Shown: positions 3,116-29,576 of the stretch, one piece after another
Numbering within the stretch: position 1 is the stretch's first letter
Layout of the letters: each line of letters begins with the position of its first letter
DNA from: a virus
IMG/VR virus record: IMGVR_UViG_3300045988_110748
Strand: one strand, 5' to 3'
DNA length: 41,334 nt
Notes under the pieces: model-generated
The model's database searches: none
Told to the model about the DNA's origin: nothing
The model's input: only the letters and a program-made list of their open reading frames with translations
Made by a program: the position numbers and the translations under genes

Positions 3116-5578
3116 ATGAAAAGCTGGACTGATACAGCAAAAGCGAAATGGCGGGATAGCGACTCACGCCAAATTAAGGCAGAAATTGAACTTGGGCATT
3201 ATACATGGGTGCCGCCCCCGCCCGAACCTGACGAACCGGACGTACCCGAACCCGAACCGGGGGAAGTTAAAATAGCTTACAGAATAGAGCCTGGCGAGAT
3301 TGTAGGGAACTCCGCCAAGATAGACGAGGCCATATCCGATGCGGAAACCATCAAATATGGCACGGTACAGCCCGCAGCACTTGAAATACAGATTGTCGAA
3401 GATAGCGAGGAAGTAAGTGAGGTAGAGCGGTATAGCCAACATCTGGACGGATACGTTAAAGGGCGTATCTGGGATTATGCGATAGGCCACAAGATAACGG
3501 TATATCTATGGGATACAAGTAATGTGTTTGAAATGGGGTCTCCTTATGTCGCTGAATTTTACATTGCTGGGGTTAAAGGCGAGGGCACGACAAAATTTAA
3601 GACTATTACGGCATATGACGCGCTGAGCCTTTTTGACAAAGACGTTTCCGATTGGTACAACGGCCTTGACTTCAACGGGCTTACCCTTAAAGTGTTCCGC
3701 GAGAGCCTATGTACATATTGCGGCGTGGAATTTGAGAGCGTAACGCTGCCCAACGACAGCATGACCATAAGCCGCACAATGTCCGCAACGTCCATATCGG
3801 GGCGCGATATCCTTTCTGCGTGCTGCGAACTCAACGGCTGCTGGCCTAAGATAGAGCTATGGGCAGACGTACCTCCGGACTGGGATATCTCATTCATGGG
3901 AACAATAAACAAACTCCGCTGGGTGACGCTTGGCGGCACATCGTGCGAAACGTTTGATTACAGTCAATACGACTATACTTTCCGTCCCGACAGCACCCGC
4001 GAAGAATATGACTGCAAGGGCATTAACGCCGTTGTGGTACGGGCAACCGAAGACGATGTAGGCGGGCATTACCCCGCAACCGTGCAGGATAACCCGTACA
4101 TCATACAGGGCAATTTCCTATGCTTTGGCAAGACCACGGCGGAGCTTACCACCATAGCGCAAAACATATATAACCAGATAGCGAACAAGCCATACAGGCC
4201 GCACAAAACGGTTATAACGGGGCGGCCTTACCTTGAACCGGGCGACAAGGTAACGGTGAAATTCGCCGAGGGCAACGGCGGGACATTTGACACCTATATA
4301 CTCAAGCGCATAATGACGGGCGAGGCCGCCCTGCTGGATACCTATGAAGCCAAGGGGCAAAAGGAGCATAGGGAGCAGTATGGCATATCCCAACAGATAC
4401 AGCAGATACAGGGCAGGACAAACGAACTGTCCCGCACGGTTGACGAAACCGTAAACACCATTACCCGCATCGAGTACCTCACCCCCGTTTTGTCGAAAAC
4501 CGACCCGTCAGCGGAATGGACGGACGATGAAAAGGCGGCGAAAGAGGGCTACCAATGGTTTGACGGTACTGACTTGCGCATATGGGACGGGGCGGCATGG
4601 AAGCTGACCATATACCCCGACTATAACCAAAGCACACAGCCCACAAACGCCAAGGAGGGGGAATACTGGTATAACCCGACAACGGGCGAGATAAAGAAGC
4701 TTGTCGGCGACACATGGATGGCTGATAGCACGGTATGTATCCCCACAACGTGGACGCAGACCATGCAGACACAGTTAAAGATTACCGCCGAGGGCGTACA
4801 AAGCACCGTCACAAAGGATAATATCATATCCACCATCAACCAGAGCGCGGAGAGCGTAAGCATAGACGCAAGCAAAATTGACTTGACGGGCTATGTCACA
4901 ATAAACTCCCTGAAAGCAGGGGGAACCACGCAGATTGACGGCGGGCGCATAACCACGGGTACGGTAGCGGCAGCGCGTATCGATGTTGATAATCTCTACG
5001 TTAAGCACCTGAGCGCGGCTGATGGGACATTTTCGGGAACGCTTAACGCGGTGAACGGTACTTTTACCGGAACGCTGCAAGCCGCGAGCGGCACCTTTTC
5101 ATCCCTTGACGCTGCGGGTGGGTATGTCCATTTTGGGTATGATTATATATCCGTTTACGGGGTCGAAATAGGGTGGATCCCAAGAATAGCATCGCAAATA
5201 TGTATAGTGCCATCTGGCGCAGGCATTGGCAACGTTGGTATAGGCGATTATTATTGGGACCAGGTTAAAGCTAACCGACACCCAACTGCATCATCGATAC
5301 GATACAAAAAGAACATACTCGCTGCAACTGAAACAGACTTTAGCGATATAAGCAATGTCCGCATTGTGACATTTAACAATAAAAACGGCAGCGACGCAGG
5401 GCGGCAGATGGGCGTTATTGCAGAGGAACTGTACAAAGTATTTCCGTATGCTGTGTGCCTAAATGATGCTGGTGAGCCCGACGGCGTGGAATATGGCAAG
5501 TTATCACTGCTTGCCATTGAAGCAATACAAAAACTCGAAAAGCGCGTGAAAAAACTTGAAGAAAGGAGACTTATATGA
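3116..5578 (+). CDS. Tail-associated/tail fibre protein with C-terminal intramolecular chaperone (Peptidase_S74-like) domain
   Basis: 820 aa. The C-terminal ~98 aa from nt 5282 (PTASSIRYKKNI...GVIAEELYKVFPYAV...YGKLSLLAIEAIQKLEKRVKKLE) matches the S/D-x-R-x-K autoproteolytic chaperone domain pattern of tail spikes. Confidence 0.8.
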   Translation: MKSWTDTAKAKWRDSDSRQIKAEIELGHYTWVPPPPEPDEPDVPEPEPGEVKIAYRIEPGEIVGNSAKIDEAISDAETIKYGTVQPAALEIQIVEDSEEVSEVERYSQHLDGYVKGRIWDYAIGHKITVYLWDTSNVFEMGSPYVAEFYIAGVKGEGTTKFKTITAYDALSLFDKDVSDWYNGLDFNGLTLKVFRESLCTYCGVEFESVTLPNDSMTISRTMSATSISGRDILSACCELNGCWPKIELWADVPPDWDISFMGTINKLRWVTLGGTSCETFDYSQYDYTFRPDSTREEYDCKGINAVVVRATEDDVGGHYPATVQDNPYIIQGNFLCFGKTTAELTTIAQNIYNQIANKPYRPHKTVITGRPYLEPGDKVTVKFAEGNGGTFDTYILKRIMTGEAALLDTYEAKGQKEHREQYGISQQIQQIQGRTNELSRTVDETVNTITRIEYLTPVLSKTDPSAEWTDDEKAAKEGYQWFDGTDLRIWDGAAWKLTIYPDYNQSTQPTNAKEGEYWYNPTTGEIKKLVGDTWMADSTVCIPTTWTQTMQTQLKITAEGVQSTVTKDNIISTINQSAESVSIDASKIDLTGYVTINSLKAGGTTQIDGGRITTGTVAAARIDVDNLYVKHLSAADGTFSGTLNAVNGTFTGTLQAASGTFSSLDAAGGYVHFGYDYISVYGVEIGWIPRIASQICIVPSGAGIGNVGIGDYYWDQVKANRHPTASSIRYKKNILAATETDFSDISNVRIVTFNNKNGSDAGRQMGVIAEELYKVFPYAVCLNDAGEPDGVEYGKLSLLAIEAIQKLEKRVKKLEERRLI

Positions 5579-9354: not shown

Positions 9355-9594
9355 GTGGTGGACAAAAACATTTTGCAGACCCTATCCCGCGCGGAGTGGG
9401 AAGGGATAATCTATCAGCGGATTTTTAGTGAGCGCGACCGCTGGCTTGTGGCGCGGCACCTGCTGGATGGCGTGCCGTATGACCGCTTGACGGCGGAGTA
9501 TCAGGCGCGGTACACCGATGCGCCGTTAGAGTATGACCAAATTCGCCGCCGATACAAGGCGGCAGAGAGAACCCTTATAAAATATGCCCCCTGA
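9355..9594 (+). CDS. Hypothetical sigma-70 region-4/HTH-like small protein
   Basis: SERDRWLVARHLLDGVPYDRLTAEY...IRRRYKAAERTL resembles region-4-like phage regulators. The start is GTG and the RBS is weak, so the start is uncertain. Confidence 0.45.
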   Translation: MVDKNILQTLSRAEWEGIIYQRIFSERDRWLVARHLLDGVPYDRLTAEYQARYTDAPLEYDQIRRRYKAAERTLIKYAP

Positions 9595-9614
9595 TGGGGG
9601 CTTTTTATTTTTTT
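9586..9614 (+). terminator. Rho-independent terminator
   Basis: GCCCCC-tgat-GGGGGC hairpin followed by a TTTTTATTTTTTT run. The stop codon of the upstream gene lies in the loop. Confidence 0.7.
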
Positions 9615-9622
9615 GGGGGGGC

Positions 9623-9651
9623 TTGACATATGCCTGATGCTGTGGTATTTT
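9623..9651 (+). promoter_or_regulatory. SigA-type promoter with extended -10
   Basis: TTGACA (9623-9628), a 17-nt spacer, then TGgTATTTT (9643-9651). It points into the non-coding repeat unit. Confidence 0.55.
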
Positions 9652-9654
9652 AAT

Positions 9655-9748
9655 AGTGCCATCCGGCAACGGATGAGGATTGAAATATTTGATTTTTCGT
9701 TTTTGCGTCTGGGACGCATGCCACCCGCTTACGGGTGTGGATTGAAAC
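9655..9748 (+). CRISPR. Mini CRISPR-like unit: two type I-C-like repeats flanking one 30-32 nt spacer
   Basis: R1 is TGCCATCCGGCAACGGATGAGGATTGAAAT (9657-9686). R2 is TGCCACCCGCTTACGGGTGTGGATTGAAAC (9719-9748). The period is 62 nt. The stem differences are compensatory. The 3' ends match the GGATTGAAAC/T handle. Confidence 0.6.
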
Positions 9749-9771
9749 ATCTACTTTTAGGTTTTCAAGCC

Positions 9772-9809
9772 GAAAGAAAAAGATGCACCGCCGTGCATCT
9801 TTTTTCTTT
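9772..9809. terminator. Bidirectional rho-independent terminator
   Basis: AGATGCAC-cgcc-GTGCATCT stem (9781-9800), flanked by GAAAGAAAA upstream and TTTTTCTTTC downstream. It closes the + strand repeat unit and the - strand gene that ends at 9816. Confidence 0.75.
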
Positions 9810-9815
9810 CCCCTG

Positions 9816-10109
9816 CTATTCCACCCATCCCCAAAGATTTATCCAGTTTTTGGGGCAAATTATCCGGTACATATAGGGCGGATTCCTCCAGTTGAGCCAG
9901 TCGAATATCCAGGCATCACCCCATTCATTATCAGCCGCCAGTGCATCCAGCTCTGGTATCCGCTCATCTGATACGCAGTACACCCCGTAGCCCTCATCCG
10001 TGATGTAGTGACGCAAAAACTCCATGTGATACTTTTCGGCTAAGGCCATCAGCGTGGCCTTGGTTCTCGGCATTCTCGCTTCCATTTTTTCTCTCATTTG
10101 GGGCGGCAT
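9816..10109 (-). CDS. Hypothetical Trp-rich protein (start may be an internal Met)
   Basis: Second gene of the leftward operon driven by the promoter at 10466-10494. No family was recognised. Confidence 0.55.
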   Translation of the reverse strand: MPPQMREKMEARMPRTKATLMALAEKYHMEFLRHYITDEGYGVYCVSDERIPELDALAADNEWGDAWIFDWLNWRNPPYMYRIICPKNWINLWGWVE

Positions 10110-10132: not shown

Positions 10133-10417
10133 TTAGCGGTTCAGCGTTTCGGCGGCGTGCTTGGCTACTGCCGCGTCATAAGCGGATTCGCAGTCCTCAA
10201 AGCTATCAAAGTCTATATCCAGCTCAAAGCACAGCGCCTCGACAAGATTCGGTTCCCACTCGGCATCGTCGTCTATGGCCGCTATAAGCTCATCTGCCGT
10301 AGCCGCGCGGACTTCGCTGCGGGGGAAGTCTTTTTCCGCTACCCGCCACATGGGGATAAAATCTTCGCCATATTGCTCATAAGTCTCGGTGCCTTCAATC
10401 GCTTTGTAAACCTTCAT
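10133..10417 (-). CDS. Hypothetical strongly acidic small protein (94 aa)
   Basis: RBS GAGGGAG before the ATG. It lies directly downstream of a consensus promoter. The sequence is D/E-rich (AAIDDDAEWEPN, ELDIDFDSFEDCE). Confidence 0.65.
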   Translation of the reverse strand: MKVYKAIEGTETYEQYGEDFIPMWRVAEKDFPRSEVRAATADELIAAIDDDAEWEPNLVEALCFELDIDFDSFEDCESAYDAAVAKHAAETLNR

Positions 10418-10465
10418 TTTTAACTCCCTCTGGGGCTTTTGCCCCTTGCTTTATCTTATGGCTAT

Positions 10466-10511
10466 ATTATACAGCAGATTTTATACTTTGTCAAGCGTTT
10501 TGCCTGACAAA
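10466..10511 (-). promoter_or_regulatory. Consensus promoter (copy A) with palindromic operator over the -35
   Basis: On the - strand: TTGACA (10489-10494), 17 nt, TATAAT (10466-10471). The palindrome TTTGTCA-N11-TGACAAA spans 10487-10511. Confidence 0.7.
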
Positions 10512-10529
10512 GTTAAAAATATTTTTGCC

Positions 10530-11009
10530 CTACATATATATGCCGAAAACCTCTGCCAATGTGGCTTTGTGCTTTTCGGGGATTGGCCGCTTCCCGCCTG
10601 TCCAGTCGGATACGGACTGGCGGGTCATGCCGCAAGCAGCGCCGACTTTTTCCAGCGTCAGCCCCTTTTCGCGCATTTTTGCCGCAAGGTATTCGGGGTC
10701 GCTAAGGATGGGCGCGGCCTTACCGCGATAAAAAGCCAAGTCCCACATACATTGCTGCTGCGCGCTTATGACCTTATCACCATCGTCAAAATCTTCGGGC
10801 GCAAGCGGCTGGATCGCGTCGCTTATGGCGCGATCAAGGGGGCGCGTCATCTTGCGGGCGGCCATAAGCCACCGCATGGACAGCGCGAAACCGTGTGCCG
10901 GACGGCGTTGCGCCTCCGCGAATAACGCTGGCTCGCTAAACTTATCGGGGCTGATGTGCCACATCAGCCCGTAGATGTACCCAAGTGTTTTTACTGCTTC
11001 ATCTCGCAT
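10530..11009 (-). CDS. HTH (XRE-like) DNA-binding protein, C-terminal HTH
   Basis: The C-terminal KGLTLEKVGAACGMTRQSVSDWTGGKRPIPEKH is a helix-turn-helix pattern. It is the second gene of the operon from promoter copy B. Confidence 0.7.
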   Translation of the reverse strand: MRDEAVKTLGYIYGLMWHISPDKFSEPALFAEAQRRPAHGFALSMRWLMAARKMTRPLDRAISDAIQPLAPEDFDDGDKVISAQQQCMWDLAFYRGKAAPILSDPEYLAAKMREKGLTLEKVGAACGMTRQSVSDWTGGKRPIPEKHKATLAEVFGIYM

Positions 11010-11025
11010 TTTTTCTCTCCTTTTT

Positions 11026-11634
11026 TTATTTTAATAACATGGGCAGCAGCGCGTCGCGATTTTCCATTATGTACTCCCAGCACTGCCGTATCATAGCGGG
11101 CTGTATGGCTTCCCTGCTGCCGAATACCTCTATTTGCCGCCCGCTGAGTAGCTCTATGCCGACAAGGCATCTCTTGGCGCGGCGCTCCTCCGGCGGCGTT
11201 GTGCCGTAGTCTCGCGCATATATGCCGTAGGCATCCACAAATTCAATTGGGGTTATGTTGGCCAAGCCGGACTCTATGTTATTGATTTCGTATTCGGCGG
11301 GTTCCTTGGCTTCTTCGTTTGGGGTTTCTTCCGTTTTCTCAGTTTCGGGTTCTTCGGTTTCGGTGCGGGGGACGTAGACCACGATGGTCTTTGTTTCTTT
11401 GTTGTAGCTGCCGCGCTCGGTCTTGCATTCGCCATAGTTTTCTTTGTATTCGCGGTAGGACATTTCTACGGCTTCGCAACCTTCGGCGTTCTCGGCGTTT
11501 ATGTGGGCTTCGTAGCAATCGGGGCAGTCGCCGTAAGTCTCATACCACTTGATTTTGCGTTCGCGTTGTTCGGTCGTACCAAACAGCTCTATCGTAGCAG
11601 TGTGGCCGCAGGAAAATGTTACATCGTACTTCAT
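11026..11634 (-). CDS. Hypothetical protein with N-terminal Cys/His cluster and acidic linker
   Basis: 202 aa with RBS GAAGGGAG. It contains SCGH...CPDCYEAH and a Glu/Thr/Pro-rich linker. No family was recognised. Confidence 0.7.
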   Translation of the reverse strand: MKYDVTFSCGHTATIELFGTTEQRERKIKWYETYGDCPDCYEAHINAENAEGCEAVEMSYREYKENYGECKTERGSYNKETKTIVVYVPRTETEEPETEKTEETPNEEAKEPAEYEINNIESGLANITPIEFVDAYGIYARDYGTTPPEERRAKRCLVGIELLSGRQIEVFGSREAIQPAMIRQCWEYIMENRDALLPMLLK

Positions 11635-11684
11635 AATTTCTAACTCCCTTCGGGCTTGTCGCCCTTGCTTTATCTTATGATCAT

Positions 11685-11730
11685 ATTATACATCGGCCTG
11701 CTCTATTTGTCAAGCGTTTTGCTTGACAAA
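11685..11730 (-). promoter_or_regulatory. Consensus promoter (copy B) with palindromic operator over the -35
   Basis: On the - strand: TTGACA (11708-11713), 17 nt, TATAAT (11685-11690). The palindrome TTTGTCA-N11-TGACAAA spans 11706-11730. It is a near-duplicate of 10418-10530. Confidence 0.7.
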
Positions 11731-11772
11731 ATTAAAAATATTTTTGCCCGCTAAATGCCCTATAAAATCCCT

Positions 11773-26041: not shown

Positions 26042-26050
26042 GAGGTAAAA

Positions 26051-26731
26051 ATGAAAACACTCAGATACGAAACACGGGATGCAGACGGAAATGACATTGT
26101 AAAGGATGTCGCAGTGAAGGAATTTGCGAGTGCCAAGGCGGAGTTTAGATGCCACGTCTGCGGACGGGAATGCAGCCAGGGCGTTAGAACAACGGATATT
26201 ATCTCGGGCTCATTTACGGACTACGCGCTCATAGGGGATTATGTATGCAATGACTGCGCAGACCTTTTTAGCCTGTACTTTTACAGCTACATTAAAGACG
26301 CTGACGGGATAAGGCTGCTAAATGTACGGAGCATTCGGGACGAGATCACGCAGGAGCAAAAGCCGCCGTTTATGTTTGTGATAACTACATCGCAAAAAAA
26401 GCATCTATTTTATCGAGCGAGAATGAATCATGCGCCGACACCGTTCGCGGTGCAGCTTGAGACCGAGACGATATACACCACAACGAGCAGGATGCGGACG
26501 CTGTTTGATTTTGTTGAATCGCTTATGACACTCGGACAATCAAAAAAAGCGTTGGCGGATGGGGAGATGCGCTATGAAGTGATGCAAAAGGTCGGCGCGG
26601 GTGCATTTAGCTACCTTCGGCGCGAGCTGAGAGCATCACGGGAGATACAAATACCAATCTACTGCGGACAAAAAAGAGATATAACAGACGAGGAGGCAAT
26701 ATGTTGTATAAATTCAATACTGACAGCGTAA
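26051..26731 (+). CDS. csf1: Csf1-like (Cas8-like large subunit) zinc-finger protein, putative
   Basis: 226 aa with two CxxC pairs (CHVCGREC, CNDCADLF). It is the first gene of the block that contains Cas7- and Cas5-like genes. The call rests on size, the zinc finger and position. Confidence 0.5.
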   Translation: MKTLRYETRDADGNDIVKDVAVKEFASAKAEFRCHVCGRECSQGVRTTDIISGSFTDYALIGDYVCNDCADLFSLYFYSYIKDADGIRLLNVRSIRDEITQEQKPPFMFVITTSQKKHLFYRARMNHAPTPFAVQLETETIYTTTSRMRTLFDFVESLMTLGQSKKALADGEMRYEVMQKVGAGAFSYLRRELRASREIQIPIYCGQKRDITDEEAICCINSILTA

Positions 26732-27135
26732 AACACGCGAGTGCGGCGCTACTGCTCTACGCAATGTACCGCAGCCGCAACAAAAACAGCCCGCTGAATG
26801 GGTTGGAGACATGGGACAGGTTTAACAGCTACATCCGCGGAGCTTGCCTAAAAAGTAGCACAACGGCAGAGTTTATGCAAAAATTCTGCCGCGCGGCGAA
26901 GATAGACAGCGTTAAGCCACGCTATTTGTCAACCGACGATCCTGTGCTAATGCCTGGAACTGGCGAGCTGATAATGAGCGATGCTATAAAGGACTACAGA
27001 ATACCGATTATCGAGGATAACAGTCTGCTGCGCATAATGTCGGATGAATCAATTTATCTGTGTATGCTTGTACGCGACCGCATTCAACGCGAAAAGATGG
27101 AGTATAAAGAGGAGGGGGCCGAATATGAATACTAA
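26701..27135 (+). CDS. cas11: Cas11-like small subunit, putative
   Basis: 144 aa and helical-looking. It lies between the Csf1-like and Cas7-like genes and overlaps both. The call rests on position and size only. Confidence 0.4.
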   Translation: MLYKFNTDSVKHASAALLLYAMYRSRNKNSPLNGLETWDRFNSYIRGACLKSSTTAEFMQKFCRAAKIDSVKPRYLSTDDPVLMPGTGELIMSDAIKDYRIPIIEDNSLLRIMSDESIYLCMLVRDRIQREKMEYKEEGAEYEY

Positions 27136-28012
27136 TATAAAATACAGACTGCTTTCGCCTGTTTCGCACATTGGCGAGACCGCCAGCACCGGTAGCTATT
27201 TTCAAACCGTTCTCACGACGCAAGGGAGATTGCCTGTGATAACCGGCAACAGTACGCGCGGTCAGATCAGGGATAGCGCAGCGCTTCACCTCCTAAACAC
27301 GCTCAACATAAAAGTGGACAAAGAAATATTCAACGTGCTTTTTTCGGGCGGCAACCTCTCCGGCACGATGCGGGACGATGTAGAGCGGGCGAAACAAATT
27401 CGTAATTACTATCCGGCGGTATCACTCCTTGGCGGCGGTATGGGGACGATGATCATGGCGGGTAAGCTGCTGGTATCGTTTGGATACCCTGTATGCGCGG
27501 AGAGCGAGCAGTTTACGGGCATAGACAGCGCCCAATCTTGGCATGAGATGATTGAAGAGATTGAGTTTACACGCACCGATGACACCAAGAACGATGTAAA
27601 AGCCGGCCGAATAGTTAATATAAACGATGACTCAGGGGCGGGGACAGCATCAACGCAGATGCGCTACTCCGTACAGTATATTGCAGCGGGAACGGAGATT
27701 GTACAAAACCTTATTACACTTGATGGCACAACGCCTCTAGAAATCGGCGCACTGTATGCAGCTATATGCGAGTGGTTTAAGGTGCCGAGGCTTGGCGGCA
27801 TGGCGGCAAAAGGGTTTGGCTTGTTCGATGCTGTTGTCGGTGACCGCGATATAGTCCTTAGCGGCGGCAGGATAACGCTGAAACCGCAAATTGCAGATCT
27901 TATCGATGCATATGAGACTTTTGTCCGCGAGGAGGGCGGCGAGCATTTATCGCTCCTTGCCGCACCGAAAGGAGGGAAGAAGGGTGGCAAAAAAGCCAAC
28001 AACGCCGATTAA
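27125..28012 (+). CDS. csf2: Cas7-family RAMP protein (Csf2-like)
   Basis: ATG at 27125 after GAGGAGGGGG. RAMP hallmarks are SPVSHIGE, LPVITGNSTRGQIRD, LFSGG, SLLGGGMG and the G-rich loop PRLGGMAAKGFGLF. Confidence 0.75.
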   Translation: MNTNIKYRLLSPVSHIGETASTGSYFQTVLTTQGRLPVITGNSTRGQIRDSAALHLLNTLNIKVDKEIFNVLFSGGNLSGTMRDDVERAKQIRNYYPAVSLLGGGMGTMIMAGKLLVSFGYPVCAESEQFTGIDSAQSWHEMIEEIEFTRTDDTKNDVKAGRIVNINDDSGAGTASTQMRYSVQYIAAGTEIVQNLITLDGTTPLEIGALYAAICEWFKVPRLGGMAAKGFGLFDAVVGDRDIVLSGGRITLKPQIADLIDAYETFVREEGGEHLSLLAAPKGGKKGGKKANNAD

Positions 28013-28691
28013 AGTCACGGCGCACCTGCTTGACGGCAGAGTAAATACGGCAGACGGGATCATTATGTTGGACGCGATATTGTATCATGCGTGGTTTAGC
28101 AGACACAAGCCGGAGGTCTTAGAGGGCTGCGGCAGCACGCAATATGACGGATATACGGGGCTGCCGTTGCGGCAGCTCCCCGATAATAGATGGGCGGCAA
28201 GCAGAGGCATATTTAAGACCGAGGGCAAAAACATCGAATACATAAATAGGAGACCTAACTTTTTCGATGCGGACAAGATCGGACATCTTGACATGGAGAC
28301 GGGTATAATATCGGACAGCGTAGGCGTATACCGGGCGTACCGCATACCGCGAGTTGTCAGCACTGTCAGCGATATAGAGTTTTATGCCATGGGCGACAAG
28401 GCTAAAGTGCAAGACCTATTGACGGCGATCCCGGCCGTAGGCAAAAAGCCCGCGGTGGGATATGGTTTTGTAGCCGAATGGAATGTGGAGGACTGCGACG
28501 AGGATTACAGTCTGTGGCACCCTGAGTACGGACTTATGCGCCCGGTGGTGGTCGGCAGTGACGAGGCAAAGGGGCTTGAGCTTAGTACATATCCCGTTAT
28601 GCAATACGGAATAAAGCCACCTTACTGGAAACCCTGCAATATGCGTTTGTGCCATGTGCCGATTGCTACGGCGGAGAATGCGACAACATGA
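27984..28691 (+). CDS. csf3: Cas5-family protein (Csf3-like)
   Basis: Probable GTG start at 27984 after GGAGGGAAGAAGG. The N-terminal IKVTAHLLDG...GIIMLDAILYHAW resembles the Csf3 N-terminus as I remember it. It follows the Cas7-like gene. Confidence 0.6.
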   Translation: MAKKPTTPIKVTAHLLDGRVNTADGIIMLDAILYHAWFSRHKPEVLEGCGSTQYDGYTGLPLRQLPDNRWAASRGIFKTEGKNIEYINRRPNFFDADKIGHLDMETGIISDSVGVYRAYRIPRVVSTVSDIEFYAMGDKAKVQDLLTAIPAVGKKPAVGYGFVAEWNVEDCDEDYSLWHPEYGLMRPVVVGSDEAKGLELSTYPVMQYGIKPPYWKPCNMRLCHVPIATAENATT

Positions 28692-29461
28692 CTATTGACG
28701 ATTTTGTTAAGATAGGCGCGCTCAGGTCGGGCATGCGACAATACGCCGAAAAGCGGGACAAAGCAATAAGGCTTTGCGAAGAGCAATTCCGCACGCACAA
28801 AAGACCATATGTTGCAATAAGCGGCGGCAAAGACAGCGTTGCTATGGCGTACATTGTGGACGCTGCGGCGAGACGCGTCGGGGCGGATTATAGATTGTGG
28901 CTGCATTGCTCGGATGCATCGTTCCCCGGCACGGTAGAGACATGCCGCAAGGTGGCCGCGGCGGTTGGCAGAGAGCTTGATGTATTTGAAAGTAAGGATT
29001 CTGCGTTTGACGCGATAGCACGCCCGCAAAAGGCTGCATTTGGGAAAAGCGGCGTATTCTTCAGCTCGGTGCGCGAGTACGCAAAGGACAAAGATTTATG
29101 CTTTGTGGGCGTTCGAGCTGCGGAGAGCCGGAGACGGATGCGTGCCGCTAAAGCACACGGGCAAGTGTTTGACAGCGCATCAATGGGCGATGTGACGGTT
29201 TGCCATCCGCTCCTATGGTTTACCCTGTATGATGTCGCGGCGGCGCTGCACGAGTACGATGCACCAATACACCCGATATACAAAAAAATAACAATAGAGC
29301 GCGGGGAAAACCGGTGCGGTGAGGAATCGTTTATCCGGCTCGGTTATATAACGTCACGCGACCTGCTCAACAAAGGCACAGCGGTGTTTCTGCGGATAAA
29401 CTACCCGGACGAGTTTAACAGGCTTGCAGCCGCGTATCCGGAGATACGGCTATGGGTGTAG
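28688..29461 (+). CDS. cysH: PAPS reductase/CysH-like (DndC-like) PP-loop enzyme
   Basis: ATGA-coupled ATG at 28688. The PP-loop is YVAISGGKDSVAMAY, with the downstream motif FVGVRAAESRRR. Confidence 0.85.
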   Translation: MTIDDFVKIGALRSGMRQYAEKRDKAIRLCEEQFRTHKRPYVAISGGKDSVAMAYIVDAAARRVGADYRLWLHCSDASFPGTVETCRKVAAAVGRELDVFESKDSAFDAIARPQKAAFGKSGVFFSSVREYAKDKDLCFVGVRAAESRRRMRAAKAHGQVFDSASMGDVTVCHPLLWFTLYDVAAALHEYDAPIHPIYKKITIERGENRCGEESFIRLGYITSRDLLNKGTAVFLRINYPDEFNRLAAAYPEIRLWV

Positions 29462-29576
29462 CCAAGGCGGAGGGGAGGGGGTATCAAAATCCCTGCGCCG
29501 TGGCGGCTCGTACCGCGGGCCCCTCAACGGAACAAAAAATTTTCGATTTTTGTGAAAAATCAGGCGAGGCAGTAGG

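Follow-up and report, generated by a model that had tools for sequence, protein, structure and literature searches.

A tandem of type I-C-like CRISPR repeat mimics in a human-gut phage, most likely an RNA anti-CRISPR

Viral solitary repeat units (SRUs) lying directly 3' of promoters have been described as RNA anti-CRISPRs, or Racrs (Camara-Wilpert et al. 2023, PMC10651486), and one of them, RacrIC1 from a prophage of the gut bacterium Bifidobacterium pseudocatenulatum, inhibits type I-C. SRUs were selected in that study by a promoter within 250 bp upstream and by likeness to the host's own CRISPR repeat (PMC10651486). For a second kind of viral element, the regulatory RNAs that resemble CRISPR RNA (crRNA) and are termed viral Cracrs or crlRNAs, a member must have a pseudo-spacer (PsiS) that agrees at 9 or more positions, proximal to the protospacer adjacent motif (PAM), with a host CreA/CreR or with the promoter of a cas or toxin gene (Liu et al., bioRxiv 10.1101/2024.10.29.618823). 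Here we describe a unit at positions 9623-9806 (+ strand) of IMG/VR record IMGVR_UViG_3300045988_110748, a viral sequence of 41,334 nt which is referred to, in its whole length, as the window. The window represents a temperate siphovirus-like human-gut phage with integrase, NlpC/P60 endolysin and RecT/YqaJ genes and shares 92-98% identity with GenBank MT835524.1 and many IMG/VR contigs; the unit consists of a sigma-70 promoter, two 30-nt hairpin-plus-handle units and a bidirectional terminator. Most likely the unit is a phage gene, complete in itself, whose non-coding RNA product of about 150 nt mimics type I-C repeats and is of the solitary-repeat or Racr kind; as an RNA decoy it would most likely belong to a recently described kind of element rather than to a new one.

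The unit lies in a gap of 221 bp bordered by two stop codons, that of a 79-aa gene at 9594 and that of orf97, a convergent 97-aa gene, at 9816. An initial annotation, made from the letters alone, had placed here a promoter, two repeats (R1 and R2), a hairpin in the spacer-like segment between them (S1) and a terminator, with a period of 62 nt and repeats identical at 23 of 30 positions; all of these were recovered on the sequence, and the features of the gap are as follows.

9586..9601, + strand: terminator hairpin GCCCCC-TGAT-GGGGGC with a T-run, found by terminator scan; it belongs to the upstream 79-aa gene and is kept in all alleles
9623..9651, + strand: sigma-70-type promoter, TTGACA at 9623-9628, a 17-nt spacer and an extended -10 element TGgTATTTT ending at 9651
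9657..9686, + strand: R1, I-C-like repeat mimic, stem arms 9660-9665 and 9670-9675, handle 9676-9686
9687..9718, + strand: S1, 32-nt spacer-like segment, hairpin TGCGTC-TGG-GACGCA at 9704-9718, 3' part TTTTTGCGTCTGGGACGCA
9719..9748, + strand: R2, I-C-like repeat mimic, stem arms 9722-9727 and 9732-9737, handle 9738-9748
9749..9776, + strand: S2, trailing segment, its opening 17 nt like the start of S1, with the anti-handle TTTCAAGCC
9777..9806, both strands: bidirectional intrinsic terminator AAAAAGATGCAC-CGCC-GTGCATCTTTTT with an A-run and a T-run

The promoter scored 10/12 in the promoter scan, with the TG extension present, and the predicted transcription start (about 9657-9659) falls on the opening bases of R1. 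The promoter ends 6 nt upstream of R1, well inside the 250 bp used to select SRUs. By itself it is no better than chance (1 found against 1.1 expected in a 900-nt region); nonetheless it is kept in every allele (n=19), including a copy in a different flank. R1 has the 6-bp stem CATCCG/CGGATG with a GCAA loop and the 11-nt handle AGGATTGAAAT, while R2 has the 6-bp stem CACCCG/CGGGTG with a CTTA loop and the 11-nt handle TGGATTGAAAC, the two stems differing by one compensated pair (T-A versus C-G). Within S2 the anti-handle (9763-9771) complements the R2 handle (9739-9747), and the terminator that follows has perfectly complementary arms of 12 bp (9777-9788 and 9793-9804) and runs into a T-run; it ends both the RNA unit and the convergent orf97. 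On the upstream side the terminator at 9586-9601 insulates the unit from transcription of the lysis cassette. The 158-nt RNA folds better than its shuffles (z = -5.3).

An adaptive CRISPR array would be expected to have near-identical repeats, but R1 and R2 are only 77% alike. Their direct-repeat likeness does not stop at the repeat ends but continues for 17 nt in each "spacer" (74% over 47 nt in all), so that the unit looks like a tandem duplication and not like a repeat joined to an acquired spacer. The motif GGATTGAAAY occurs twice in the 41 kb, both times inside the unit (0.22 copies expected by shuffling; 3 of 100 shuffles reach two), and besides R1 and R2 no further CRISPR-like direct repeats were found in the 41-kb window. 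A coding alternative, an 87-aa open reading frame (ORF) at 9613-9876, was ruled out by indels between alleles; as the initial annotation had it, the gap is non-coding, with alleles differing by indels of 1, 2 and 62 nt.

Type I-C repeats end in an 11-nt 3' handle, (U/A)GGAUUGAAA(C/U), written as DNA (A/T)GGATTGAAA(C/T), which becomes the 5' tag of the crRNA, and in this class the stem-loop ends exactly at the handle, where Cas5c cleaves. Both repeats of the unit have these features: the handles AGGATTGAAAT (9676-9686) and TGGATTGAAAC (9738-9748) also occur in arrays beside I-C operons, and the stems of R1 and R2 (6 bp, 4-nt loops) directly abut them. A metagenome scan for arrays with repeats ending like R1 and R2 returned at least 120 genuine arrays of two repeat classes, namely class A, a 37-nt repeat (GTTGCACCCGTCCTTCGGGACGGGTG followed by AGGATTGAAAC) one variant of which has an R1-like CATCCG...CGGATG stem, and class B, a 32-nt repeat (GTCACCCGCTTCACGCGGGTG followed by TGGATTGAAAC). 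Representatives of both classes adjoin type I-C cas operons (PADLOC E 1e-50 to 1e-222); a class B array at locus L194 stands beside a full operon, cas3c-cas5c-cas8c-cas7c-cas4-cas1, and the I-C operon of locus L193 reads cas5c-cas8c-cas7c-cas4-cas1c. R2 agrees with the class B repeat GTCACCCGCTTCACGCGGGTGTGGATTGAAAC from beside the full operon of L194 at 28 of 32 positions, with a 3-nt deletion at the hairpin apex, and R1 agrees with the class A variant, a natural I-C repeat (GTAGCATCCGGTCTTCGGATCGGATGAGGATTGAAAC), at 27 of 37, with the stem apex deleted; in both comparisons the 3' 17 nt of the match was fixed by the search pattern and the match of the 5' arm and loop is independent of it. One natural array (L164) has the same hairpin dimensions as R1 and R2, with a 6-bp stem and a 4-nt loop. 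Judged by these alignments, R1 and R2 are shortened, mutually diverged versions of real I-C repeats, and the assignment to type I-C that the initial annotation had made is supported. None of the 2854 spacers of the metagenome arrays listed matches the phage, so these arrays are not taken to be the host's. The earlier statement that the genome has no I-C cas genes holds for the content scanned, in which the cas genes found are a type IV-B set only.

We recovered 19 distinct alleles of the unit from related human-gut phages, 15 with two repeats, always around the same S1, and four with a single repeat. Two of the four have R1 joined to S2, one has an R1/R2 hybrid that represents recombination within the hairpin, and one has R1 and part of S1 joined to the terminator. 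Promoter and terminator are retained in all 19, single-repeat alleles included, which indicates that S1 is dispensable; S2 is kept in three of the four single-repeat alleles and is gone together with R2 in the fourth (L014). The module is found complete, from promoter to terminator, in a different flank and without orf97 in contigs 106976 and 076466, and the unit is therefore self-contained. Within S1 the 5' 13 nt vary among alleles and the 3' TTTTTGCGTCTGGGACGCA is nearly constant, its hairpin at 9704-9718 being paired in every two-repeat allele with a varying loop and a G-U wobble at one stem position. Across 14 orthologous alleles the five helices of the RNA are 96% paired: helix 2 (the S1 hairpin) is 100% paired, helix 4 (the R2 handle with the anti-handle) keeps its outer 8 pairs in 14 of 14, and helix 5 (the terminator) is 100% paired with one compensatory change. 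Homologous phages keep the region as a non-coding one, with its hairpins largely paired across the 14 alleles compared.

The unit is cleanly absent from MT835524.1 and from two other relatives. Two further related phages carry a different cassette at the same place (L049 11614-11860 and L061 11613-11860, corresponding to 9613-9815 of the window), made up of an additional ORF on the minus strand, a TTGACA...TATAAT promoter and an RNA of some 110 nt that folds into several hairpins and has a terminator of its own. The structured RNA of this cassette had no match in Rfam, and the cassette could be another anti-defence RNA. As two relatives show with this other promoter-driven RNA, the site is a hot spot for cargo.

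We think that the unit acts as an RNA anti-CRISPR, Racr-like, on Cas5c and Cascade of a type I-C system that its host would carry, and give this reading a probability of roughly one half. It is the second of three readings that the initial annotation had offered, a repeat-mimic RNA anti-CRISPR, and it fits best with a promoter that abuts R1, with the one-repeat alleles, with a constant and structured S1 and with the lack of a target. As a viral repeat-like unit the element also lies outside any cas locus of its type, the nearest cas genes being those of type IV-B, 16 kb away. In the mechanism that we propose, the strong promoter would start transcription at the first base of R1, and each unit of the RNA would offer the features that Cas5c recognises, a short stem-loop abutting the 11-nt handle (A/U)GGAUUGAAA(U/C). 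Host Cas5c and then Cas7c would bind, with probable cuts at the stem bases after G9675 and G9737, and the products would have no useful guide, since the middle piece would carry a hairpin in its guide region and the last piece a handle paired to the anti-handle and running into the terminator. The Cas proteins would then be held in unproductive complexes that compete with genuine crRNAs, and the phage, or the prophage and its relatives, would be protected from I-C interference. A decoy is favoured over a guide because of the one-repeat alleles, the constant and self-structured S1, the lack of targets and the pairing of the last handle with the anti-handle.

Several points weigh against this reading, in addition to the share of the repeat matches that the search pattern had fixed. 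In size the R1-S1-R2 piece corresponds exactly to an I-C crRNA that could be loaded (an 11-nt handle, a guide of about 33 nt and a 3' hairpin), dimensions that suit a guide or regulatory role as well as a decoy. Among the matches listed, the closest natural repeats come from environmental metagenomes and not from the host, whose lineage was identified from the prophage flank only. The relation to natural I-C arrays seen in the metagenome scan was not matched in Rfam, where the best hits, to CRISPR-DR9, scored 20.2 and 18.4 bits where the gathering score is 45, and none attained the gathering thresholds; the exact sequences of R1 and R2 were also absent among the entries listed in the Racr supplementary table. 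It had been proposed that the hairpin itself is under selection, for which the one compensated pair between R1 and R2 is the sole support; covariation across the 14 alleles was not above that of shuffled controls, because there is too little variation among them. Finally, no recognisable Acr family was found among the neighbours of the unit, which are small acidic ORFs and a helix-turn-helix (HTH) gene.

The array-less Csf module reported in the initial annotation is a real type IV-B CRISPR-Cas cassette, at 26051..29461 on the + strand and 16 kb from the RNA unit, identified by PADLOC (E 8e-34 to 7.5e-51), by NCBIfam and by the Pfam family PAPS_reduct. It consists of five genes.

26051-26731, + strand: csf1
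26701-27135, + strand: cas11
27044-28012, + strand: csf2 (cas7)
27891-28691, + strand: csf3 (cas5)
28649-29461, + strand: cysH-like PAPS reductase gene

The true start of Csf2 is probably an ATG at about 27125 and not 27044, because the database proteins are 295 aa long. Csf2 has 420 homologues at E <= 1e-5, for the most part about 60% identical and located on phage-sized contigs of 30-45 kb from gut assemblies, and type IV-B with cysH appears to be common in gut Caudoviricetes. Between an HTH gene and a sigma-like gene the cassette is cleanly present or absent, the two genes lying about 120 nt apart in relatives without it (the site is at 26042-29472 in the window, 1849-1866 in L019 and 10886-12066 in L030). 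Conservation of 96-99% in the cassette, against 91-94% in its flanks, suggests recent spread by recombination, and contig 104938 has a csf1-cysH remnant only, with cas11, csf2 and csf3 deleted. In the genomes in which both the RNA-unit site and the IV-B site could be read, the unit was present with an intact IV-B cassette in four, with the csf1-cysH remnant in one and with an empty IV-B site in seven; both were absent from three, MT835524.1 among them, and none had IV-B without the unit. This association is not significant (one-sided Fisher p ~0.26), and two of the IV-B-positive phages have only a single-repeat allele. No I-C-like unit or mini-array was found within 10 kb of 10 more distant viral IV-B loci. 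At one such distant locus (L324 3623-3770, IMGVR_UViG_3300029394_000330) a 28-nt palindromic motif, TCTGAATTTGTAGAAAACGTGCAAATTC, occurs four times, with spacings of 32, 55 and 33 nt, some 6 kb upstream of csf2; it resembles an operator and not a CRISPR.

Two rival readings would make the unit a source of guides, as the initial annotation had also considered. That the phage's own array-less IV-B cassette uses the RNA, cut by host Cas5c or by Csf3 and loaded into Csf1-Cas11-Csf2-Csf3 to direct that complex to a target, is quite unlikely, and equally doubtful is its form in which the loaded species, as guide or scaffold, would be the processed 62-nt RNA or the handle with S2. The window does hold a complete IV-B cassette and no other repeat, all four relatives with intact IV-B and the one with a remnant carry the unit while 0 of 3 unit-negative relatives carry IV-B, and a precedent hypothesis exists for Fuxivirus, with IV-B and a two-repeat mini-array (PMC10848311). 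Still, consistent co-occurrence or adjacency with the csf genes was not found, 7 of the 12 unit-positive relatives having an empty IV-B site; the cassette, more conserved than its flanks, is combined with different unit alleles, the distant IV-B loci do without the unit, and surveys report that IV-B is negatively correlated with I-C and that no SRUs lie near IV-B (PMC7038947). A role as guide source for Csf is thus neither required nor supported, and the unit appears independent of IV-B, a facultative link with it being conceivable. Even less probable is a true viral mini-CRISPR array in which S1 would direct host I-C interference at a competing phage or plasmid. Viruses are known to carry mini-arrays (cited in PMC10848311 and PMC10651486), and two repeats around a 32-33-nt segment, with the promoter as leader, would agree with one. 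The spacer of an array would, however, vary and match mobile elements, whereas the same S1 stands in all two-repeat alleles and is never swapped for a different spacer, half of it is a hairpin, the likeness of the merely 77% identical repeats extends into the "spacers", and one-repeat alleles persist. The search for protospacers that had been suggested gave no significant match. Against GenBank phages and PLSDB plasmids S1 and S2 had chance matches only (E >= 0.7), a 17-nt match in MT837064.1 being a T-rich stretch after a terminator without a TTC PAM; an exact scan of IMG/VR with the 3' 21-mer of S1 returned homologous loci only, and a scan of IMG/VR for the TTC PAM with the S1 seed returned 116 T-rich matches, none extending past 22/32. 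Fifty of the 116 are one site inside a gene of a phage family of 36% GC, and we judge these matches to be chance. No full or near-full protospacer was thus present in GenBank phages, PLSDB or IMG/VR, nor was there a self-target of S1 or S2 within the window.

The main rival was not on the earlier list of readings. The unit may encode a regulatory crRNA-like RNA, a viral Cracr, in which host Cas5c would process R1-S1-R2 into crRNA-like species; we hold this to be unlikely, and give the same limited credence to its second part, that the PAM-proximal bases would pair partly with a promoter in the host, either that of the cas operon or that of a toxin guarded by CRISPR, so that Cascade would repress its own expression without cleavage. 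R1-S1-R2 has the layout of degenerate repeat, pseudo-spacer and degenerate repeat (PsiR-PsiS-PsiR), with a guide of about 33 nt that fits I-C Cascade, S1 and S2 open with related 17-nt sequences whose 5' parts vary, as would be expected of seeds that track variant host promoters, and nine two-spacer I-C arrays are among the viral Cracr arrays (bioRxiv 10.1101/2024.10.29.618823). On the other hand, the single-repeat alleles are intact despite the total loss of S1, the conserved part of S1 is a PAM-distal hairpin and not the seed, and the scans of IMG/VR for TTC and seed yielded T-rich matches at chance level only. Rather improbable, too, is a structured phage small RNA unrelated to CRISPR, such as a regulator of lysis and lysogeny or of host mRNA, whose I-C likeness would be coincidental or vestigial. 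Such an RNA would account for the strong conserved fold of five helices, for a last handle that is itself base-paired, for the different structured RNA at the same site in relatives and for the sub-threshold Rfam CRISPR hits, but a hairpin abutting an 11-nt I-C handle, twice over and with 28 of 32 positions shared with a natural I-C repeat, is very unlikely to arise by chance, and the architecture matches that of the described SRUs.

The genes next to the unit have features of their own, and the two neighbours in question are listed here.

9816..10109, - strand: orf97, a small protein of pI 5.1, convergent with the RNA unit
10133..11760, - strand: candidate anti-defence operons with orf94 (pI 4.05), an HTH_3 protein of 159 aa and an acidic 202-aa protein

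Both orf97 and the RNA unit are lost in MT835524.1, and each is also found without the other. The orf97 protein occurs in 251 blocks of the public assembly collection; it had no sequence match in the PDB and no Pfam or PHROG family, and its AlphaFold2 model (pLDDT 53) was too poor for a fold search. In the operons beyond it, two near-identical intergenic regions, 10418-10529 (upstream of orf94-orf97) and 11635-11760 (upstream of p202-HTH159), have on the minus strand a TTGACA/TATAAT promoter overlapping the palindrome TTTGTCAAGCGTTTTGCYTGACAAA, suggestive of an operator common to the two regions, through which an Aca-like repressor would control two operons for small acidic proteins. By likeness to acr-aca loci, an anti-defence role of the operons at 10133-11760 may be suggested.

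As to the host, in metagenome contigs of 124-129 kb the prophage abuts a CitMHS-family permease, for which CCX51025.1 is the reference protein. At 99-100% identity this permease matches proteins named from "Clostridium sp. CAG:226" and metagenome-assembled genomes (MAGs) of Christensenellaceae/Eubacteriales, which points to an uncultured "Clostridium sp. CAG:226"/Christensenellaceae lineage as the probable host. No prophage copies were seen among the matches listed in the genome scan (at least 120 loci). On a 65-kb ENA contig (NODE_320, L063 1-5707), two large genes with TIR domains and a Band_7 gene stand next to the phage region where the integrase side would otherwise be; this flank could be a defence island or reflect another integration context.

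Other elements with I-C-type repeats came to light in the same scan. MAGs of Rhodocyclales-type Betaproteobacteria (Accumulibacter, Azoarcus, Zoogloeaceae, Azonexus) contain an unrelated dispersed element of about 125 nt in tens of copies per genome, which among the matches listed (L072-L191, for example L081, L098 and L105) ends in a solitary I-C-type repeat, GTCGCCCGGTYACGGGCG followed by TGGATTGAAAC. The repeat is usually followed by AT and then by unique DNA, and on the other strand the element ends in the Shine-Dalgarno sequence and ATG of a neighbouring gene; it could be a miniature inverted-repeat transposable element or repetitive extragenic palindromic (MITE/REP) element, or a solitary-repeat RNA with the flanking DNA as "guide". 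A two-repeat unit of period 67, CCGCCCGCGCGCGGGCG followed by CGGATTGAAAY, lies at 3635-3726 of locus L089 (MAG 'binchicken_co21_484') with no further repeats in the 8-kb locus, and may be another mini-array or a CreR-like element.

If the unit is indeed an RNA anti-CRISPR, such RNAs extend to an abundant human-gut prophage family of an uncultured Christensenellaceae-like host, and in a tandem form built from two different I-C mimics which would collapse and re-form by recombination. Two structural features would then be new for Racrs, the pseudo-spacer hairpin and the anti-handle. Identity-based searches for SRUs may undercount such elements, because the unit is too degenerate for them. Within the phage family there are also natural genotypes that have the unit together with IV-B, the unit by itself or neither of them, though none with IV-B by itself was seen, and this makes the use of CRISPR-like RNA by type IV-B, a long-standing question, directly testable; were the RNA a guide for that cassette, it would be the first defined RNA partner for type IV-B.

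Compared with the described systems, the unit is closest to RacrIC1. Like RacrIC1, it is a repeat look-alike in a gut (pro)phage without cognate cas genes, with a promoter directly upstream, small neighbouring ORFs and a hairpin-plus-handle that imitates a Cas5-processed I-C repeat. Unlike RacrIC1, the unit has as its usual form a tandem in which two distinct mimics, 77% alike, enclose a structured 32-nt segment, and it stands alone with its own promoter and terminator, whereas RacrIC1 lies 11 nt downstream of an acr gene; its repeats are more degenerate, with the stem apex deleted, its anti-handle is conserved, and inhibition is here only proposed. With the viral Cracrs, which imitate the host CreA/CreR mini-CRISPRs, it shares the order of degenerate repeat, pseudo-spacer and degenerate repeat in a phage; these are sometimes stacked as two-spacer arrays, type I-C included, and have been proposed to hijack host Cas proteins. 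Viral Cracrs are, however, defined by matches of the pseudo-spacer to the host, whereas the comparison made here is of layout alone, and in S1 it is the PAM-distal hairpin that is conserved. Mini-arrays carried by viruses (Medvedeva et al. 2019), as far as PMC10848311 describes them in citing that work, resemble the unit in having one or two spacers and no adjacent cas genes and in relying on host Cas machinery; in the same account of inter-virus conflict their spacers match related viruses and their repeats equal the host's, while here no target was present in the collections searched and the repeats differ. Fuxivirus, a virus of Bathyarchaeia (PMC10848311), likewise combines an array-less IV-B cassette (csf1, cas11, csf2, csf3 and a cysH-like gene) with a two-repeat unit, but its mini-array is inside the IV-B locus, whereas 16 kb separate the unit described here from IV-B; its repeats are of I-C type, and most of the relatives in which it occurs are without IV-B.

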